A DNA stretch of 64,000 bases from Nitrosopumilaceae archaeon (GTDB lineage Archaea; Thermoproteota; Nitrososphaeria; Nitrososphaerales; Nitrosopumilaceae), in NCBI GenBank assembly GCA_965200155.1, contig CBDATR010000034.1, forward strand, positions 1-64,000, written 5' to 3'. This document shows positions 4,037 through 38,044 of the stretch, one piece after another. Every line of letters starts with the position of its first letter. The stretch's first letter is position 1. The notes below the pieces were generated by a model that made no database searches, was not told the DNA's origin, and saw nothing but the letters and a program-made list of their open reading frames with translations. Made by a program: the position numbers and the translations under genes.

Positions 4037-4128
4037 GTATGAGTTCACCTGTGTCTAAATTTACGCATAACTGATCGCGACAGTTAATGCAATTTGTGCA
4101 TAAGATTCCGAAAGACGTGAACTCATAC
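4037..4128 (+). mobile_element. IS66-related MITE, 92-bp variant A
   Basis: 12-bp TIR GTATGAGTTCAC, identical to the ends of the IS66 at 55136-56801. Confidence 0.9.
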
Positions 4129-4250: not shown

Positions 4251-4451
4251 GTATGAGTTTACCTGTGTCTAAATTTACGCATAACTGAGTGTGAGTTCAC
4301 CTGTGTCTAAATTTACGCATAACTGATGGAACAGGTTGTTCTAGTTAATGTGATTTGTGCATAAGATTCCGGAAGACGTGAACTCATACATAACTGATCG
4401 CGACCGTTAATGTGATTTGTGCATAAGATTCCGGAAGACGTGAACTCATAC
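4251..4451 (+). mobile_element. MITE variant B (4289-4389) inserted into MITE variant A
   Basis: The inner copy is flanked by the 8-bp TSD ATAACTGA. Confidence 0.9.
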
Positions 4452-4494: not shown

Positions 4495-4586
4495 GTATGA
4501 GTTTACCTGTGTCTAAATTTACGCATAACTGATCGCGACCGTTAATGTGATTTGTGCATAAGATTCCGGAAGACGTGAACTCATAC
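4495..4586 (+). mobile_element. IS66-related MITE variant A
   Basis: Same 92-bp sequence; no TSD. Confidence 0.9.
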
Positions 4587-6656: not shown

Positions 6657-7445
6657 TAGACCTTATGCGTAGAATCACTTGTCCAGCATTATACGTTTAA
6701 ACCAAGTTTATGGATGCAAATGATTGGCCTAACACAAACACGTGTGTGAAACAGAAAAGGTCTAATCTTGTAGTGCTAAAAGTAGAAGAACTCACCAAGG
6801 AGCAGAATAGTACAACCGGCTACGCACCGAGCCTGAGGCCGAAGTAACAATTGCGTGGAAAAAATGACATCCTGCACGCCAAACTTGAAGCACACAATTC
6901 CCTTGTTTCAAATCTTGATGACGTCATAGAACGCAAGGATTCGCTGACCGGATGCTCTCCGGGATACTGACCAGATTCAAGGAATATGTAGAATCTCTGG
7001 AAGGTGATGATGTACGACGATTCCTAGAGCTTACAAATGGTATGAGTTCACGTCTTCCGGAATCTTATGCACAAATCACATTAACTGTCGCGATCAGTTA
7101 TGCGTAAATTTAGACACAGGTGAACTCATACTACAAATGATCGTGGACACGTTACCATTAGACACCTACTCCTAGTCACATTGATACACCTGCGCTGCAA
7201 TACAAAACAGGAGCTGCTTGCAGCAATACTCAAGATAAACCAATCAAACATATGCATATATATGCAGTTTACAAAGCGGGGTATGATCAAGATACTTCCA
7301 ACAGCAGATACAATTGCGTATGCGCTATCGCGGATCAAGTCAACATCTGACTTTAAGGAAATTGTTCCAGGCCGTGCTGGAGGGGAGATAAAGACTGACG
7401 GAACACATGTACGTGTACAGCGTCCCGAAAAAAATCAGGGAGCAA
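6657..7445 (+). mobile_element. Truncated second copy of the ISL2-like element
   Basis: Reverse-complement match to 3100-3831 with many small deletions; starts TAGACCTTATGCG. Confidence 0.85.
7040..7131 (-). mobile_element. IS66-related MITE variant A
   Basis: TIRs plus the 8-bp TSD TACAAATG. Confidence 0.95.
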
Positions 7446-7666
7446 TAGACCTTATGCGCATGATTGACAGTAATTGTTTAGGTTGCTTCAAATTGAGGTA
7501 TATTTTATGACACAATCCGGTAAACATGAACAAACAAGGGATTGTTACGTAACAGTCCAACCAGAGGACTATTGGAATAATGGTCCTGACCAGTGGAAAT
7601 GGTGCCCACCAGCCCCAGCGTGTGTTACAAATGTCCTGCTGTGATTGCTTGAGTGGCATAAATGAT

Positions 7667-8390: not shown

Positions 8391-8482
8391 GTATGAGTTC
8401 ACGTCTTCCGGAATCTTGTGCACAAATCACATTAACTGTCGCGATCAGTTATGCGTAAATTTAGACACAGGTGAACTCATAC
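8391..8482 (-). mobile_element. IS66-related MITE variant A, followed by an inverted IS66 fragment (8483-8587)
   Basis: TIRs present, no TSD. Confidence 0.9.
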
Positions 8483-10443: not shown

Positions 10444-10535
10444 GTATGAGTTCACCTGTGTCTAAATTTACGCATAACTGATCGCGACAGTTAATGTGAT
10501 TTATGCATAAGATTCCGGAAGACGTGAACTCATAC
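10444..10535 (+). mobile_element. IS66-related MITE variant A
   Basis: TIRs and conserved core. Confidence 0.9.
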
Positions 10536-12902: not shown

Positions 12903-14365
12903 TAGCGCCCACCATAAGTCTTTGCCAGGTATAGAACCGTACTTATATAGAACCACTACTGGAGTAGAATCGCCAGATGATGGATAACATAATTCGGACA
13001 GTCATTATACCGTTGAAAAATAATAGGGAATTCTCCCCGCGCGCCAAGATATTTGGTCACACCTCCGATTACGTGTGTAACAGGGCGGTGTCCGAGATCA
13101 CGTTGGGCGGTTACTACATACCCGGAACCACTCTTGAATTGAAGCATGATCCGGCCAAGGTCAAGAATAAGAACGAGTCCGCCAAGTCACCATATGACCT
13201 AAAGAAGGGTGATTCATTATACGTGAATCAGCTACCGCGTTCTAGAACGGCTATCAGGGGACGGTTTACCCGTCCAACAAGAATGGTTTGTTCCTGGAAT
13301 TGACAAGTGGCGCCGTGATATTAAATGGGTGCGCGAGTTACTCTCTAACTATGGCCGGGGCGCCATACTACAGGCGTCTATCGCGTGCAGGCGGGCGTAC
13401 GAGGATCATTCTAATTACATACTACACCGGCGTGACAATGACAGAATCATACTATCATGTGTAGGGCCACCAATCCGTCGTGGTGAGTTCGAGTTGGGCC
13501 TGTGCGGTTTTGGTGTGGTGAGAACAACCAAACCAATCGATCGTTCCTTGGACATGCGCTCATTCAAGATAGTGGAACGAGTTGACAAGAGCAGGGAACG
13601 TCAATTTGAGATTCACATCAATATACGGGAGAAGCCACCTACCGACCGGCGTTGTTTGCGGCGTGGATGTCGGCAGGAAACATCTAGCTGTAACAGCTTA
13701 CACGAATGGCAGAACGATGATCCATGACATGAGACATCGTTCCATATTGCGGGAGATTAGCGCACTCCAGAGTATTAGAACGCGAAAGGGTAAGCGCAGG
13801 AAGCGAAAGATTGAGAAACAAATCACTCGACTACGACAAACATAGCGAACGACTCCATGAATAGAGTAGTCCACGCGGTCACCAAAGGTGTGGACAAGGT
13901 AGTACTAGAGGATTTATCGCCGATATCAATGACCAGTCATGGCGGGAACATGAAACGTGGAATAAATAGAACGATGCGCGAGAACCGGGTAGGCGAGTTC
14001 CGCCGGAAAGTAGTACAAAAGTGCGATGCACTGGGGATTGAATTGGTGGCTGTGCCAGCGAGATACACGAGGGGGCGATTTACCCGCCCAACGAGCCAGA
14101 CCTATCACGTGTGTGGACACGTTGACAACAAATCACGATCAACTAGGGACACATTCAATATGTAACCAGGAATTTCACGCCGATATCAACGCGGCGTTTA
14201 GTAACCGGTTTCCCTGTATGGGGCGGCAGAGCGTGTCGTCCGGGGGGTGGGGAACCATTTCCCGCTCAACCGGAGGCGTCAGGGCGGGAATAATGGTGAC
14301 AAGCCAAAGCTATGCACTGTCCAGGAACGAGGTGCCATGTTCTCAAAGACTTATGGTGATCGCTA
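12903..14365 (+). mobile_element. TIR-bounded element containing TnpB
   Basis: 22-bp IR with 2 mismatches: TAGCGCCCACCATAAGTCTTTG / CAAAGACTTATGGTGATCGCTA. Confidence 0.75.
12977..14200 (+). pseudogene. tnpB: TnpB (IS200/IS605/IS607 OrfB-like RNA-guided nuclease), multiply frameshifted
   Basis: RuvC-I VCGVDVGRKHLAV, RuvC-II VVLEDL, PARYT..SQT.HVCG zinc-finger remnant and RuvC-III HADINAA, spread across 4-5 frames. Confidence 0.88.
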
Positions 14366-14639
14366 TATGTGCATCAATCGGGGTAACTTGAACAACTGGA
14401 ATTATGGTTCGGAAGTGGTATGACTGGTGTCCATCCCAAAGCCGTTATCCTGTCATTTCACCATACACATTTACCGGAAAGTGGCTACCGCGATCCTCGT
14501 CCATCCATACCCACGCGAGGTCGTGAAGGCACAGTGATGCCTGTACCGGGTACGGGAAATTATCCCTGAGAATCCGGGGGGCCTGCAGTCTACGTACAAG
14601 CTAACAAACTATAAACAACACGCACAAAAAAGCCATGAC

Positions 14640-19365: not shown

Positions 19366-20404
19366 TGTCAGTCAATAGTACAAAAAGTAAGTCCGCTTAG
19401 GATCCGGCGTACAGTAGCTGACTATTTCATTGCACAAGCCAGATGGTAAAGAGAATAACAGAGAAATCAAGACAAAAGAGGCGTTGCCACAACCAACATA
19501 GCTCAAGACCTGAAACAAGGCACGTACGAAGATTGTGAACCAGAGAACGGGAACGACTCAAGATGGGCAGGCCCATGATACCAATCACCGCCACCCAGAT
19601 ACGAATGGTAACTGAAGCATACAGCAAGGATCCCGCCGGAGTAGTACGTATTGCAAAGAGGCTTAGACAGAATTACAATATATCGCGCAGTATATCGCAT
19701 AATGAAAAAGAACGGTACGGCAGGATCATCACCTGCAAAGTCAGAGTGGGTACGCTATGAGCGTAAATATTCCAATGCAATGTGGCACTGGCATGTCATG
19801 AAAAGATGAGCGCTTCAAGGGACTGAATCTCATAGATGATGCATCTCTTTACAGGAGAACAGATCCGAGCCATGGTAGAACGGCGCTTCAAGGGACTGAA
19901 TCTCATAGATGATGCATCTAGGTGCATCGTCGGGGCGGCACTATTTGAGCATGCAACCTCAGAGAATGTCGCTCTATTACTGAGACTGGCAATGAAACGA
20001 TTCGGCGCCCCTGCATCTTGGATAACGGCGCGTGTTTCGTAGGACAATAAAAGGGCAAAAAGAACTGGAAACCCACTATTCTAGGAAGAACTGCTGGATC
20101 AAGACATCATACTAATCAATTCCAGGCCATACCACCCGCAGACAAATGTCAAACTGGAGCGCTTCTACAGAACGATTGAGGACGAGGGGACTCTTATTTA
20201 AGAGTCCAACGAGATATGGCATTATGACAGTCTCCGGGATTATGTTGACTACTACAATGAGAGAAGGTTGCACTTCTCACTGGATAGATAACGGCGAAAC
20301 GCCGCTTCAGGAATAAAAAGGCGACCCAAACAATTAGGGCAAATGATGCAAAATGGATGGAGCGAGATACCAATTACTAGCGGACCGACTTTTCATACAT
20401 TACA
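19366..20404 (+). mobile_element. IS481-family element type A, degenerate transposase
   Basis: TGT...ACA ends with ~30-bp imperfect TIR (..GAAAAGT..GTCCGCT). WVRYERKYSNAMWH, DDASR, PYHPQTNVKLERF. Confidence 0.85.
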
Positions 20405-20420
20405 GATAACCCAACCATAC

Positions 20421-20521
20421 GTATGAGTTCACGTCTTTCGGAATCTTGTGCACAAATCACATTAACTAGAACAACCTGTTCCATCAGTTATGCGTAAATT
20501 TAGACACAGGTGAACTCATAC
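20421..20521 (-). mobile_element. IS66-related MITE variant B (101 bp)
   Basis: TIRs; core TAGAACAACCTGTTCC; no TSD. Confidence 0.9.
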
Positions 20522-20522
20522 C

Positions 20523-24376: not shown

Positions 24377-24477
24377 GTATGAGTTCACCTGTGTCTAAAT
24401 TTACGCATAACTGATGGAACAGGTTGTTCTAGTTAATGTGATTTGTGCATAAGATTCCGGAAGACGTGAACTCATAC
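24377..24477 (+). mobile_element. IS66-related MITE variant B
   Basis: TIRs; no TSD. Confidence 0.9.
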
Positions 24478-25086
24478 TATCCCCCACCTACTCGCCGGTA
24501 ACCGTAAATGCATATGCTCACCCAGTCCGCGAGCACTGATGAATCCGCGCCTCTTTTTCCATTTGGTCCTAATCCACTCTCCACGACTGCACTTTTAAAG
24601 GCCGGTCGAGTCAACAATCATGGTTCTAGTCAGCTTTTTGTCCGTGCCGACAATCAGTATGAGTTCACGTCTTCCGGAATCTTATACACAAATCACATTA
24701 ACTAGAACAACCTGTTCCATCAGTTATGCGTAAATTTAGACACAGGTGAACTCATACTCTAGTAGTCCTGCAAGGAATCCGGATACCTGCCTGTATCTCA
24801 TACCTAATGCCGTTCTCAGTGTCATGTAACATGCCCATGGCATACTGGTAGGGAGCACCCTCCTTGTTATGGTTGGCCTTTTCAATCCCATGCATGGTTA
24901 AAGCCAAATAGCCTTCCGCTGGACGTACTTGGCATTGTCGGTGAATGCCATCAAGTTTGTTTAAAAAATCTCAGATATTAATGCTTGGATCCAAGTTAGT
25001 AATCACTGACAGAATGAACGAAAATACTCAAACCGTTTTTACATACATTTTTGATCTAACTTGTTTGGAGTTATGCAACAAACTCC
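24478..25086 (-). mobile_element. Fragment of the IS903-like element, interrupted by MITE variant B at 24657-24757
   Basis: Matches 44626-45196; end GTTATGCAACAAACTCC. Confidence 0.85.
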
Positions 25087-25129: not shown

Positions 25130-25522
25130 TTGGTGCTTGACACAAACAGTGTTCTGGCCGCACTGGCTGGGCAGGATGTACAGTACACTCTCCAGTCTGA
25201 TGCCGGGACTTGTGACATAAATGATGTGACCATACAGGAGACAGAAACTCCCGTACGGGGGTCCATGGCCAGGGGAAATGTCTACGTAGAGGAGTCCCGG
25301 TCGTACCGCATATCAGGCAACGTACATGCGGGTATTGCCTTGTCTCTCTCTGATACCATGTTAGGCCCCAACCCTACCTTTGGCGGACTGACTATATTGG
25401 CCCGTCACAAATCAGGTACAACTAGAATATCCGGCAGCCTGCTGTCCATGGCTCGCACTGGCGATACTGCCCGCCTGTCCATAGCTGTTATATCTGTAAT
25501 GTATGAAAAGTCGGTCCGCTAG
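25130..25522 (+). CDS. Hypothetical protein; last codons and stop supplied by an IS481 end
   Basis: 130-aa ORF with host-like codon usage, reading into the TIR at 25495. Confidence 0.65.
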   Translation: MVLDTNSVLAALAGQDVQYTLQSDAGTCDINDVTIQETETPVRGSMARGNVYVEESRSYRISGNVHAGIALSLSDTMLGPNPTFGGLTILARHKSGTTRISGSLLSMARTGDTARLSIAVISVMYEKSVR

Positions 25523-26461
25523 TCATTGGCATCCCGCTCCGTCCATTTTGCATCATTTGCCCTAATTGTCTGGGTCGCTTTTTTATTCCTGAAGCGGCGT
25601 TTCGCCGTTATCTATCCAGTGAGAAGTGCAACCTTCTCTCATTGTAGTAGTCTAAATAATCCCGGAGACTGTCATAATGCCATATCTCATTGGACTCTTA
25701 AATAAGAGTCCCCTCGTCCTCAATCGTTCTATGGAAGCGCTCCAGTTTGCTATTTGTCTGCGGGTGGTATGGTCTGGAATTGATTAGTATGATGTCTTGA
25801 TCCAGCAGTTCTTCCTTGAATAGTGTTGGTTTCCAGCTTTTCTTGCCCTTTTATTGTCCTACGAAACACGCGCCGTTATCCGAGATGCAGGGGCGCCGAA
25901 TCGTTCTATCGCCAATCTCAGTAATAGAGTGGCGTTCTCTGAGGTTGCATGCTAGAATAGTGCCGCTCCGACTATACACCTGGATGCATCATCTATGAGA
26001 TTCAGTCCCCTGAAGCGCTCATCTTTTCATGACATGCCAGTGCCACATTGCATTGGAATATTTACGCTCATAGCGTACCCACTCTGACTTTGCAGGTGAT
26101 GAGACTGTCGTGCCGTTCTTTTTCATTATGCGATATACTACGCGATATATTGTAATTCTGTCTAAGCCTCTTTGCAATACGTACTACTCCGGCGGGATCC
26201 TTGTGATATGCTTCAGTTACCATTCGTATCTGGGTAGCGGTGATTGGTATCATAGGCCTGCCCATCTTTACTCGAGTCGTTCCCGTTCTCTGGTTCACAA
26301 TCTTCGTACGTGTCTTGTTTCGGGTCTTGAGCTATTTTGGTTGTGGCAACGCCTCTTTTGTCTTGATTCCTCTGTTGTTCTCTTTACCATCTGGCTTGTG
26401 CAATGAAATAGTCAGCTACTGTACGCCGGATCCTAAGCGGACTTACTTTTCGTACTATTGA
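25495..26461 (-). mobile_element. IS481-family type A, degenerate copy 2
   Basis: Reverse-complement match to 19366-20404. Confidence 0.85.
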
Positions 26462-26539: not shown

Positions 26540-26739
26540 TATGGTGGATATCCTAAGTCTTGGGTAATAAATTCGGCATTTGTTTCACACAATCCCTGGT
26601 ATGAGTTCACGTCTTCCGGAATCTTATGCACAAAAGAACCGGTTCTTTAACTGTCGCGATCAGTTATGCGTAAATTTAGACACAGGTGAACTCACACAAT
26701 CCCTGTCTTACATGTCGCGGACTTATGGAACGCGCTATA
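26540..26739. mobile_element. CCATAAGTC-family MITE interrupted by IS66-MITE variant C (26599-26697)
   Basis: The inner MITE has TSD AATCCCTG; the outer halves align with 34887-34980. Confidence 0.8.
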
Positions 26740-34733: not shown

Positions 34734-34832
34734 GTATGAGTTCACCTGTGTCTAAATTTACGCATAACTGATCGCGACAGTTAAAGAACCGGTTCTTTTG
34801 TGCATAAGATTCCGGAAGACGTGAACTCATAC
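34734..34832 (+). mobile_element. IS66-related MITE variant C (99 bp)
   Basis: TSD GAAAATAA. Confidence 0.95.
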
Positions 34833-36958: not shown

Positions 36959-37004
36959 GTATGAGTTCACGTTCCCTCTGATCAAATAACTAATCGGTGG
37001 CATT
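36959..37004 (+). mobile_element. IS66-type end fragment; a MITE right end lies at 38045-38072
   Basis: GTATGAGTTCACG; ...CCGGAAGACGTGAACTCATAC. Confidence 0.7.
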
Positions 37005-38044
37005 TGTAATGTATGAAAAGTCGGTCCGCTAGTCATTGGCATCCCGCTCCATCCATTTTGCATCATTTGCCCTAATTGTCTGGGTCGCCTTTTTATTCCT
37101 GGAGTGGTGTTTCGCCGTTATCTATATCCAGTGAGAAGTGCAATCTTCTCTCATTGTAGTAGTCCACATAATCCCGGAGACTGTCATAATACCATATCTC
37201 ATTGGACTCTTAAATAAGAGTCCCCTCGTCCTCAATCATTCCATGGAAGCGCTCCAGTTTGCCATTTGTCTGCGGGTGGTATGGTCTGGAATTGATTAGT
37301 ATGATGTCTTGATCCAGCAGTTCTTCCTAGAATAGTGGGTTTCCAGTTCTTTTTGCCCTTTTATTGTCCTACGAAACACGCGCCGTTATCCGAGATGCAG
37401 GGGCGCCGAATCGTTTCATTGCCAGTCTCAGTAATAGAACCCGGTATTTCCATGATTGCGTATGGCCAGCAGATTATCTGGCGCCGAATCGTTTCATTGC
37501 CAGTCTCAGTAATAGAACGGCGTTCTCAGGTTGCATGCTCAAATAGTGCCGCTCCGACTATACACCTGGATGCATCATCTATGAGATTCAGTCCCTTGAA
37601 GCGCTCATCTTTCATGACATGCCAGTGCCACATTGCATTGGAATATTTACGCTCATAGCGTACCCACTCTGACTTTGCAGGTGATGATCCTGCAGTACCG
37701 TTCTTTTTCATTATGTGATATACTGCGCGATATGTATTATGTCTAAGCCTCTTTGCAATACGTACTACTCCGGCGGGATCCTTGCTGTATGCTTCAGTTA
37801 CCATTCGTATCTGGGTAGCGGTGATTGGTATCATGGGCCTGCCCATCTTTACTCGAGTCGTTCCCGTTCTCTGGTTTACAATATTCGTACGTGTCTTGTT
37901 TCAGGTCTTGAGCTATTTTGGTGGCAGCAACGCCTCTTTTGCCTTGATTCCTCTGTTATTCTCTTTACCATCCGGCTTGTGCAATGAAATAGTCAGCTAC
38001 TGTACGCCGGATCCTAAGCGGACTTACTTTTCGTACTATTGACA
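37005..38044 (-). mobile_element. IS481-family type A, degenerate copy 3
   Basis: TGTAATGTATGAAAAG...CGTACTATTGACA. Confidence 0.85.

Follow-up and report, generated by a model that had tools for sequence, protein, structure and literature searches.

Repetitive extragenic palindromes (REPs) of bacteria are palindromic sequences of 20-40 nt with a short conserved end tag, which reach high copy numbers, occur as several families within one genome and are in some cases located in genes or arranged head to tail, as described in PMC3733652. Comparable behaviour is described in PMC4478555 for the GC clusters of yeast mitochondria (e.g. GC42), which are flanked by AG/ACT repeats, are present or absent between genomes, undergo merger and shuffling, form tandem arrays and depend on an enzyme that is unknown; the same source credits Weiller et al. 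1989 for their target sites and tandem arrays. Sponge mitochondria contain hairpin elements too, a second organellar parallel, for which PMC2800124 likewise gives the mechanism as unknown. Here, we describe a family of hairpin units from an archaeal chromosome, found in a stretch of 64,000 nt from a Nitrosopumilaceae archaeon (contig CBDATR010000034.1, here C34, positions 1-64000). This whole stretch is referred to as the window, and places on the rest of the assembly are given as contig and position. The genome comprises 2.38 Mb in 51 contigs (46.6% G+C, assembly 87.6% complete); the public runs that contain its contigs are labelled sponge metagenome, and the host is a sponge-associated archaeon of the ammonia-oxidiser type. 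The units, exemplified by the one that lies with its target copy at 14067-14095 in a broken TnpB insertion sequence (IS), form a genuine family of hairpin insertions of very small size that is specific to this lineage. They are a new archaeal variant among small mobile palindromes, and in behaviour appear closest to the GC clusters of yeast mitochondria and to REPs.

The likeness to GC clusters concerns behaviour only, with no common descent implied, and consists of a hairpin unit, direct repeats of 2-3 nt, tandem arrays and shuffling of units. GC clusters, however, are organellar sequences of 30-50 nt located in AT-rich spacers, whereas the units described here reside on an archaeal chromosome, measure 20-27 nt, follow an (A/T)CNAG target, end in a fixed 3' AAC tail and lie mostly inside IS genes. 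With REPs they share the design of a tagged hairpin and the high copy number of a short palindrome (149 units, against 14-18 in shuffled sequence). The tag differs, being GTAG or CGTC in REPs and AAC (or AAT) 3' of the hairpin in the present units, which corresponds to GTTG/ATTG on the other strand. REPs are also linked to a RAYT gene, whereas no Y1 match (PF01797) was obtained in this genome, and they are mainly extragenic and often organised as alternating pairs (bacterial interspersed mosaic elements, BIMEs), whereas the present units lie mostly in genes and are grouped head to tail. Finally, the archaeal host and the short flanking repeats set these units apart, the term "duplication" being absent from the main text of PMC3733652.

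Empty and filled sites

A sequence-only reading of the window had described eight such units, and all of them are present and read as described. It had also proposed that they represent a mobile unit of about 20 nt in an archaeal host. From the perspective of insertion, evidence is provided by empty sites, for which a genome swamped with insertion sequences offers natural controls. Empty paralogous sites are found at five independent places, namely in the IS481-like family, at three sites of the TnpB family (A, B and C) and in a paralog of a Type ISP methylase. At the IS481-like site (GACGAG|ATATGG), 43 of 88 copies are empty and 45 are filled; empty copies read ...GAGGACGAG|ATATGG..., filled copies carry exactly 27 extra bases, and in two further copies the 27-base unit is doubled. 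Site A of TnpB is empty in 3 of 24 copies (ACACGAG|CCAGACC or ACACAAG|CCAGACC) and filled in the other 21, which are longer by 24 bases (by 23 in three copies). Two of the 26 rows aligned at site B are empty, and site C (n=28) is empty in five copies, filled in 22 and occupied by an array in one, with at least two types of unit. Among the Type ISP paralogs, four are empty and one (C22:28213) is filled; its 24 extra bases contribute GAAKPPNK within an open frame of 811 codons.

In the window, site A consists of the upstream target copy ACGAG (14067-14071, plus strand), GGGGCGATTTACCCGCCCAA (14072-14091) and CGAG (14092-14095). The unit itself (14072-14095, plus strand), as defined by paralogs, folding and congener homologs, is composed of GGGG, a hairpin with GGGCG/CGCCC arms, AA and the repeated CGAG. 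It accounts for 24 nt more than is present in empty copies and contributes the residues TRGRFTRP inside the Y|TSQT motif. Four TnpB homologs from congeners, which are 49-58% identical, show an exact gap of eight residues opposite TRGRFTRP, between Y and TSQTC. A gap of six to seven residues at Y|TSQTC is also seen in two TnpB-type chains of solved structure (PDB), with weak E-values of 0.03-0.05. Empty sites are thus present both in paralogs and in congener homologs, the unit has been inserted into older sequence, and an ancestral origin of the hairpin in homologs does not apply to site A. The empty-site evidence gathered here exceeds that of most repeat families. As for the TnpB family at large, each of the congeners (G005, G006, G001 and G009; e.g. 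L035, L036, L038 and L039) gives 12-32 TnpB-fragment matches; frames there are intact over 450-490 codons and hairpin units are absent. In the genome of the window, the family is broken and unit-ridden.

Enrichment over shuffled sequence was found with patterns of different stringency. Of 3869 CCAAC sites, 241 have a hairpin before them, while one block-shuffled genome gives 129 of 4207, and a hairpin followed by A inside a 5-nt repeat (up to one mismatch) is found 177 times, compared with 46, 42 and 49 times in shuffled controls. The loose unit pattern that yields the 149 units gives 18, 17 and 14 in shuffled genomes. The family is also restricted to this lineage, as the pattern AGGGGAC-N6-16-GTCCAACNAG has 36 matches here and none in 40 relatives, nine of them of the same genus, and its reversed form has none in this genome. 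A GC-type pattern matches 11 times here and in none of the same 40 relatives, and a pattern for two units in tandem matches twice here and not at all in 400 other genomes of the class. Exact unit strings are found nowhere in metagenome, genome or viral contig collections, from which the records of this genome may be omitted; no Rfam match was obtained for positions 1-40000 of the window, and the literature searches listed no account of comparable archaeal units. Contigs from four public runs belonging to two studies carry units, which excludes an assembly artefact.

Anatomy, target and copying of the unit

According to 25 separate and curated sites, the unit is formed by one to three G (sometimes A), a hairpin with a GGRC...GYCC base and a terminal AAC (AAT in two of the 25), with a length of 20-27 nt and a mode of 21 nt. 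It lies directly 3' of (A/T)CNAG, with a second (C)NAG after it. On the upstream side, position -1 is G in 22 sites, -2 is A in 20, -3 may be any base, -4 is C in 20 and -5 is A or T in 20, while the first base past the whole insertion (+1) is A in 13 sites and G in nine. The orientation of the unit is constant relative to this asymmetric motif. The upstream copy and the tail agree at -1 in 24 sites, at -2 in 22 and at -3 in 14, where mismatched pairs would be expected to agree in 30% of cases. Measured as a contiguous stretch, the flanking repeat reaches 4-6 nt in 14 sites, 2 nt in eight and 0-1 nt in three, one of the last three having a boundary misplaced by one base. The duplication amounts to 2-4 nt and not to the 5 bp that had been proposed, because the AAC tail of the unit resembles the (A/T)C of the target and gives rise to an apparent repeat of 5-6 nt. 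The target, and not the unit, is the source of this repeat, since one and the same unit has CGAG on its flanks at site A but CCGG at site C, and since the 6-nt repeats of two sites (AACAAA and AACCAT) lack a terminal AG.

Although the recurrence of the unit with different stems is borne out, the description of these stems as unrelated is not, as they have the GGRC/GYCC base in common, and often the loop too, and group into related families. Recognition by structure and flanks instead of stem sequence, also suggested by the sequence-only reading, is supported in the sense that the units have in common the hairpin with its GGRC/GYCC base, the tail AAC and the target CNAG, and not the inner stem; the size of the duplication and the enzyme that had been attached to this idea are not supported. 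Units are copied, since identical hairpins occur at unrelated sites: GGGCGGTTTACCCGCCC at TnpB sites A and C as well as in arrays on C5 and C43, GGACTGTTATTCAAACAGTCC at three places and GGGCGACCATTCCCGCCC at at least four. This argues against the alternative of an enzyme-written scar, produced afresh at each site. Different units may also be combined, as in one site A copy that holds two of them in tandem, and in mixed head-to-tail arrays with one common spacer each (AATGAG on C5 and AACCAG on C43, each occurring three times). The units are therefore DNA-level insertions of a copied hairpin of about 21 nt, placed 3' of (A/T)CNAG with a short target repeat and in an orientation fixed by the motif; sites are targeted again, giving arrays, and one site can receive different units.

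Most units are located inside IS481-like, TnpB, IS1595-like, DDE_Tnp_4 and Type ISP genes. Relative to the host gene they are in sense orientation in five cases (IS481-like, TnpB, Type ISP, an fn3-type open reading frame (ORF) and an IS1595-like hit below the Pfam cut-off) and in antisense in one (DDE_Tnp_4), a sample of six in which a bias is not callable. In the TnpB family, the filling of sites A, B and C is not nested. All three sites hold a unit in most copies. Two copies (C34, ~175.8-176.8 kb; C5, ~95.8-96.9 kb) have B filled with A and C empty, and one (C10, ~271.2-272.2 kb) has A and C filled with B empty.

In the IS481-like family, the first 22 nt of the unit show two differences in 968 nt, compared with 262 in 5280 nt of the flanks; the search pattern fixed about half of the unit positions, and an unconstrained listing gives the same picture. 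The much lower divergence of the unit indicates that it spread through IS481 copies that had already diverged. In the 59 copies examined, the open stretch never exceeds 81 codons before the site or 58 after it, so that the in-frame TAA of the unit harms no remaining gene. On a tree of the 88 copies, unit presence requires 27 changes (29.6 when shuffled) and the C/T state of the tail requires 16 (15.0 when shuffled), with no phylogenetic signal in either case; strongly supported branches force at least four changes between presence and absence. Of 351 pairs formed by common flanking markers, only 7% are associated at p<0.01, and linkage extends over a few bases. These copies are thus mosaic, which makes the count of gains and losses on the tree uninformative and repeated insertion and excision inseparable from short-tract gene conversion; the data point to intense gene conversion of this kind among IS481-like copies. 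Within inherited IS copies, stems decay by one-sided changes, e.g. GGGCGGTTTACCCACCC. Inversion of the loop (flip/flop) has one candidate pair among 67 cores, and a count of stem covariation was not used, being circular for units that were selected as hairpins.

The IS481-like family as a whole has about 90 copies, all of them broken, and none of the 59 examined is open across the catalytic region (e.g. 19372-20404, 25491-26461 and 37002-38043 in the window). The first of these contains, at 19797-19910, a direct duplication of about 75 bp (CGCTTCAAGGGACTGAATCTCATAGATGATGCATCT twice), across which one RNA-library contig joins with 73 bases skipped and 36 fitting either side.

Possible modes of movement

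On balance, the units are probably copies of a non-autonomous DNA micro-transposon family. The enzyme moving them would act in trans, recognising the folded or cruciform base of the hairpin together with the AAC tail, cutting the target at C-N-A-G with a stagger of 2-4 nt and joining the unit in a single orientation. By this process, AAC and the duplicated NAG would rebuild the motif as AACNAG, so that every insertion would become a new preferred target and give rise to repeated hits and head-to-tail arrays; arrays of different units with a common spacer are what such rebuilding leads one to expect. Once inserted, the unit would be inert and would decay by one-sided mutations of its stem. Its later spread may have occurred by being carried along in the multiplication of the host IS and by short-tract gene conversion between IS copies, and slippage between the flanking repeats could have led to its loss or doubling. 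With regard to the mover, an enzyme family that is not recognised here or not assembled has a little less than an even chance. A Y1 HUH TnpA that once moved the approximately 40 TnpB elements and is now lost or unassembled is unlikely, and so, to the same degree, is one of the resident DDE transposases; an origin by repair-type capture is, if anything, slightly more doubtful. A bolder proposal, which we regard as rather unlikely, is that the units are a new kind of structure-guided mobile DNA of archaea, a "nano-transposon" of about one hairpin with an enzyme outside the HUH, tyrosine, serine and DDE families, the last in the sense of those matched to terminal inverted repeats (TIRs). The second arm might then be re-synthesised from the first at each move, which would explain why the stems of the ~67 different cores found with a stem-requiring pattern are nearly all flawless, while inherited IS copies decay one-sidedly.

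Several observations weigh against a micro-transposon family. The flanking repeats are unequal at -3 in 11 of the 25 sites, the tail of the IS481 unit is AAT in 25 of 45 units while the upstream copy has C in all 45, and one array family (C5:64384 and C9) is preceded by TAAAG, its spacer being AATGAG. Neither the AAT tails nor the TAAAG array is predicted by a clean staggered-cut duplication, and the imperfect repeats are compatible with some of the right-hand repeat travelling with the unit, either by recombination within the 2-nt AG core or in a single-strand reaction of the HUH type. About 35,000 WCNAG sites exist genome-wide, so that the motif alone does not explain repeated hits at the same sites. 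No polymorphic, moving copy was seen between the two studies in the stretch compared, where short contigs break at repeats. As for the enzyme, at E<=0.001 the genome (87.6% complete) has no Y1_Tnp (PF01797; the same profile matches 6 of 14 control genomes), no tyrosine recombinase (PF00589; 14 of 14 control genomes match) and no serine recombinase (PF00239), and no integron integrase (TIGR02249) was found in it. Y2_Tnp has no match either, with a profile that is silent in controls too and hence uninformative. No longer element bounded by the hairpin arms and no gene flanked by such hairpins was detected in the genome. The enzyme of REP/RAYT or IS91 type that had been anticipated is accordingly not supported. 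Nor do the ends or targets of any resident IS resemble the units, which led to the rejection of resident insertion sequences as the driver.

The DDE_Tnp_4 IS (52 ORF copies) is bounded by the TIR AGACCGTATGCGC, and 17 of its 24 listed pairs show a 3-bp duplication of the form ANT; the IS481-like ends read TCAATAGTAC...ACATTACA; the TnpB IS has no significant hairpins at its ends (z +0.78 and +1.30); and an IS66-type IS (83 ORF copies) and a MITE (miniature transposable element with inverted repeats) have the TIR GTATGAGTTCAC. The genome also holds an IS1595-type IS, the dead IS481-like family and one reverse transcriptase, which is broken. About 40 TnpB-only elements lack a visible TnpA, and no Xer-type recombinase is visible in the assembly, at its completeness of 87.6%. 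The idea that the units are footprints of a longer IS was also discarded, given that arm sequences are nearly confined to units and that 3 of 173 long-range arm pairs have a matching 4-nt repeat, approximately as expected by chance. Like MITEs, the units have inverted-repeat arms, target duplication, many copies and no coding capacity, and would need a transposase in trans. MITEs, however, measure 70-300 bp and have ends in common with those of an autonomous IS, as does the ~92-bp IS66-type MITE of this genome, whereas the units have 20-27 nt, variable arms and no partner IS (the IS66-type, DDE_Tnp_4, IS481-like and TnpB ends all differ). With regard to the terminal inverted repeats and the target duplication of fixed length that mark MITEs, the stem arms of the units are inverted repeats, and the flanking repeat has the range of lengths given above.

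Other hairpin-based systems show partial similarities. PATEs, which derive from IS200/IS605, have two different subterminal hairpins, a fixed target tetranucleotide, no duplication and a length of hundreds of bp. They resemble the units in their hairpin-based, strand-specific architecture and in occurring in genomes rich in TnpB elements, but the units have one hairpin, a variable N in the target (also CCGG, CAAA and CCAT), a repeat that follows the target and no Y1. The inverse core of integron attC sites reads RYYYAAC, or GTTRRRY in the complement, and these sites are recognised as folded single strands. When compared by eye with these motifs, the 3' end of the unit, G(C/T)CCAAC, fits RYYYAAC, and its complement fits GTTRRRY. 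In contrast, attC sites have at least 55 nt with AAC paired to GTT in the stem, whereas in the units AAC is unpaired outside the stem and the hairpins have 13-28 nt, with neither an integron integrase nor a tyrosine recombinase in the genome. The sole Cas1 of the genome is a Cas4-Cas1 fusion belonging to a CRISPR module; its gene has 549 codons (C9:69442-70278; L011:829-2478) and implies a module for CRISPR adaptation. A Family 1 casposase is described in PMC8464041 as integrating oligonucleotides down to 7 nt, but with a duplication of 13 bp.

Among the rival explanations, a single-strand HUH Y1 enzyme of the IS200/IS605 or RAYT kind would excise the unit and, in its folded single-stranded form, insert it 3' of a short recognition sequence. 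In that case CNAG on the right-hand side would be part of the unit, without a true duplication, and the enzyme would be lost or encoded in the unassembled 12%. A hairpin with a short asymmetric tag, in fixed orientation to an asymmetric target, agrees with this explanation, as do the ~40 TnpB-only elements, which must once have had a TnpA; the mismatches at -3 and the AAT tails opposite an upstream C would likewise fit a tail borne by the unit. Against this explanation stand the identical unit whose repeat follows its own target at each of sites A and C, and the two 6-nt repeats without a terminal AG. Considering also that Y1_Tnp finds no match where it does so in 6 of 14 controls, that the TnpB IS ends have no comparable hairpins, and that there is no GTAG/CGTC tag and no alternation of REP pairs, with duplications unmentioned for REPs in the main text of PMC3733652, we consider this explanation unlikely. 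Less likely still is a repair scar, in which a nuclease, e.g. one of restriction type, would cut W^CNRG to leave a 4-nt overhang, the ends being filled in and a hairpin oligonucleotide captured as filler. Site C does read TCCGGA, the BsaWI site W^CCGGW, with a duplication of exactly CCGG; on C22 (L023), a unit array has a BsaWI-type endonuclease domain at a distance of about 100 nt, and the genome has many Type ISP paralogs. Filler would nevertheless not be expected to be the same 20 nt at many sites, with the same orientation, G-run and AAC tail, and most targets (CAAG, CGAG and CCAG) are not palindromic sites of restriction type. We also know of no source of free hairpin oligonucleotides.

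A comparably low likelihood is given to an explanation that reduces the number of real insertions to one hit per site, with subsequent spread by IS multiplication, gene conversion and slippage, for an element that may be long dead. The mosaic structure of the IS481 copies, the two doubled units and the lack of polymorphism between the two studies in the stretch compared are compatible with it, and the count of changes on the copy tree gives no signal either way. It would account for spread within one IS family, but not for at least 25 separate sites, different units at the same site and mixed arrays, and IS481 units are far less diverged than their flanks. A device that acts at the RNA level and keeps host genes functional, such as a mini-intron or a translational bypass whose take-off and landing codons match, is highly improbable. 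The IS481 unit does combine matching codons on both sides (GAG...GAG), an in-frame TAA and a hairpin, and units are in sense orientation in five of six host genes. The host IS genes are dead in any case, as shown by the 59 IS481 copies, unlike those with translational bypass (T4 gene 60 and mitochondrial byps), in which an otherwise intact frame is interrupted; moreover, the added lengths of 23, 24, 26, 27 and 30 nt are no consistent multiple of three. Archaeal bulge-helix-bulge introns, which have two 3-nt bulges around a 4-bp helix and are removed from RNA, are not matched either, since by inspection the flanks cannot pair in this way. Contigs of two RNA libraries, which can also hold DNA, retain the units (e.g. 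13112-13306 is covered without difference), and in the contigs of four runs no joint or left-out stretch among those listed matches a unit.

If active, the micro-transposon family favoured here would rank with the smallest transposable units on record. Bacterial REPs and mitochondrial GC clusters, the movement of which has remained a question for decades, would have in it a clean counterpart from an archaeon. The system offers dozens of exact empty/filled pairs in one genome, a defined target, (A/T)CNAG, and a unit of ~21 nt, with the usual enzymes not found; given such clear material, a biochemical hunt for the enzyme is well posed. In addition, units add 7-9 residues, stops or frameshifts to genes, and thereby confuse gene calling in repeat-rich symbiont genomes.

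Units and host elements in the window

The site A unit shares its host element with two other units. This element (12904-14367, plus strand) is a TnpB-only, IS1341-like insertion sequence with several broken frames, delimited by joints or loose ends at 12903-12906 and 14367 and assigned through OrfB_IS605 and Cas12f1-like_TNB matches on a paralog. Its site B unit (13258-13281, or 13253-13281 with flank, plus strand), supported by paralogs and folding, consists of GG, a GGACGG/CCGTCC hairpin, AA and CAAG. It adds about 23 nt, which is no multiple of three, and CAAG is retained on both sides in some filled copies. A ninth unit, absent from the eight listed previously, occupies site C of the same pseudogene (14244-14273, plus strand) and is formed by GGGGTGGGGAACCATTTCCCGCTCAA and CCGG, with 26 nt of decayed hairpin between the CCGG at 14240-14243 and that at 14270-14273.

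The IS481-like (rve) pseudogene at 19372-20404 (plus strand), identified by profile and sequence comparison, carries a unit at 20187-20213 (20182-20213 with flank, plus strand) that is composed of GGG, a hairpin with a 9-bp stem, AA and CGAG; its 27 extra nt include an in-frame TAA in the loop, and it is defined by paralogs and folding. Two further copies of this unit, both with an AAT tail and recognised from sequence and paralogs, lie on the minus strand at 25686-25712 (25686-25717 with flank) and 37198-37224 (37198-37229 with flank). In a repeat of four copies, a unit-like hairpin, GGACTGTTAC G TAACAGTCC followed by AACCAG, is found by sequence and folding at 2491-2517 (2487-2517 with flank, plus strand), and a second copy of it, with one stem mismatch, is read at 7538-7564 (7534-7564 with flank, plus strand). 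All four copies of this repeat carry the unit and none of them is empty; with flanking repeats that differ (CAAG/CCAG), the status of the 2487 and 7534 copies as insertions is unproven.

Folded as single-stranded DNA, units of the window reach -5.7 to -9.0 kcal/mol. When judged against 200 shuffles each, the IS481 unit and the 2487 unit are not equalled by any shuffle (0/200 in both cases), the 14067 unit is equalled or surpassed by 7/200 and the 13253 unit by 10/200, and the decayed 14240 unit is not exceptional (71/200).

Beyond the units, Type ISP restriction-modification modules for methylation and specificity form a cluster of 19 ORFs (C22:25089, C22:28213, C43:96495, C24:486469, C10:136802 and others), one copy having an in-frame unit. 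The MITE mentioned above measures ~92-105 bp, gives ~220-290 BLAST hits genome-wide and shares its ends with the 83-copy IS66-type IS; it produces 8-bp duplications, e.g. GCCCAACG at C34:101410, where its insertion point is within a hairpin unit. In the window, copies with this TIR lie at 4037-4128, 4289-4389, 4495-4586, 7040-7131, 8391-8482, 10444-10535, 20417-20522, 24377-24477, 24657-24757, 26599-26694 and 34734-34832. Elsewhere in the genome, long perfect tandem repeats form open frames of 370-460 codons (C7:~13665 and ~20580; C10:~192369), with repeat units such as GTNIAEQTSRNKHR and RRGTQA.

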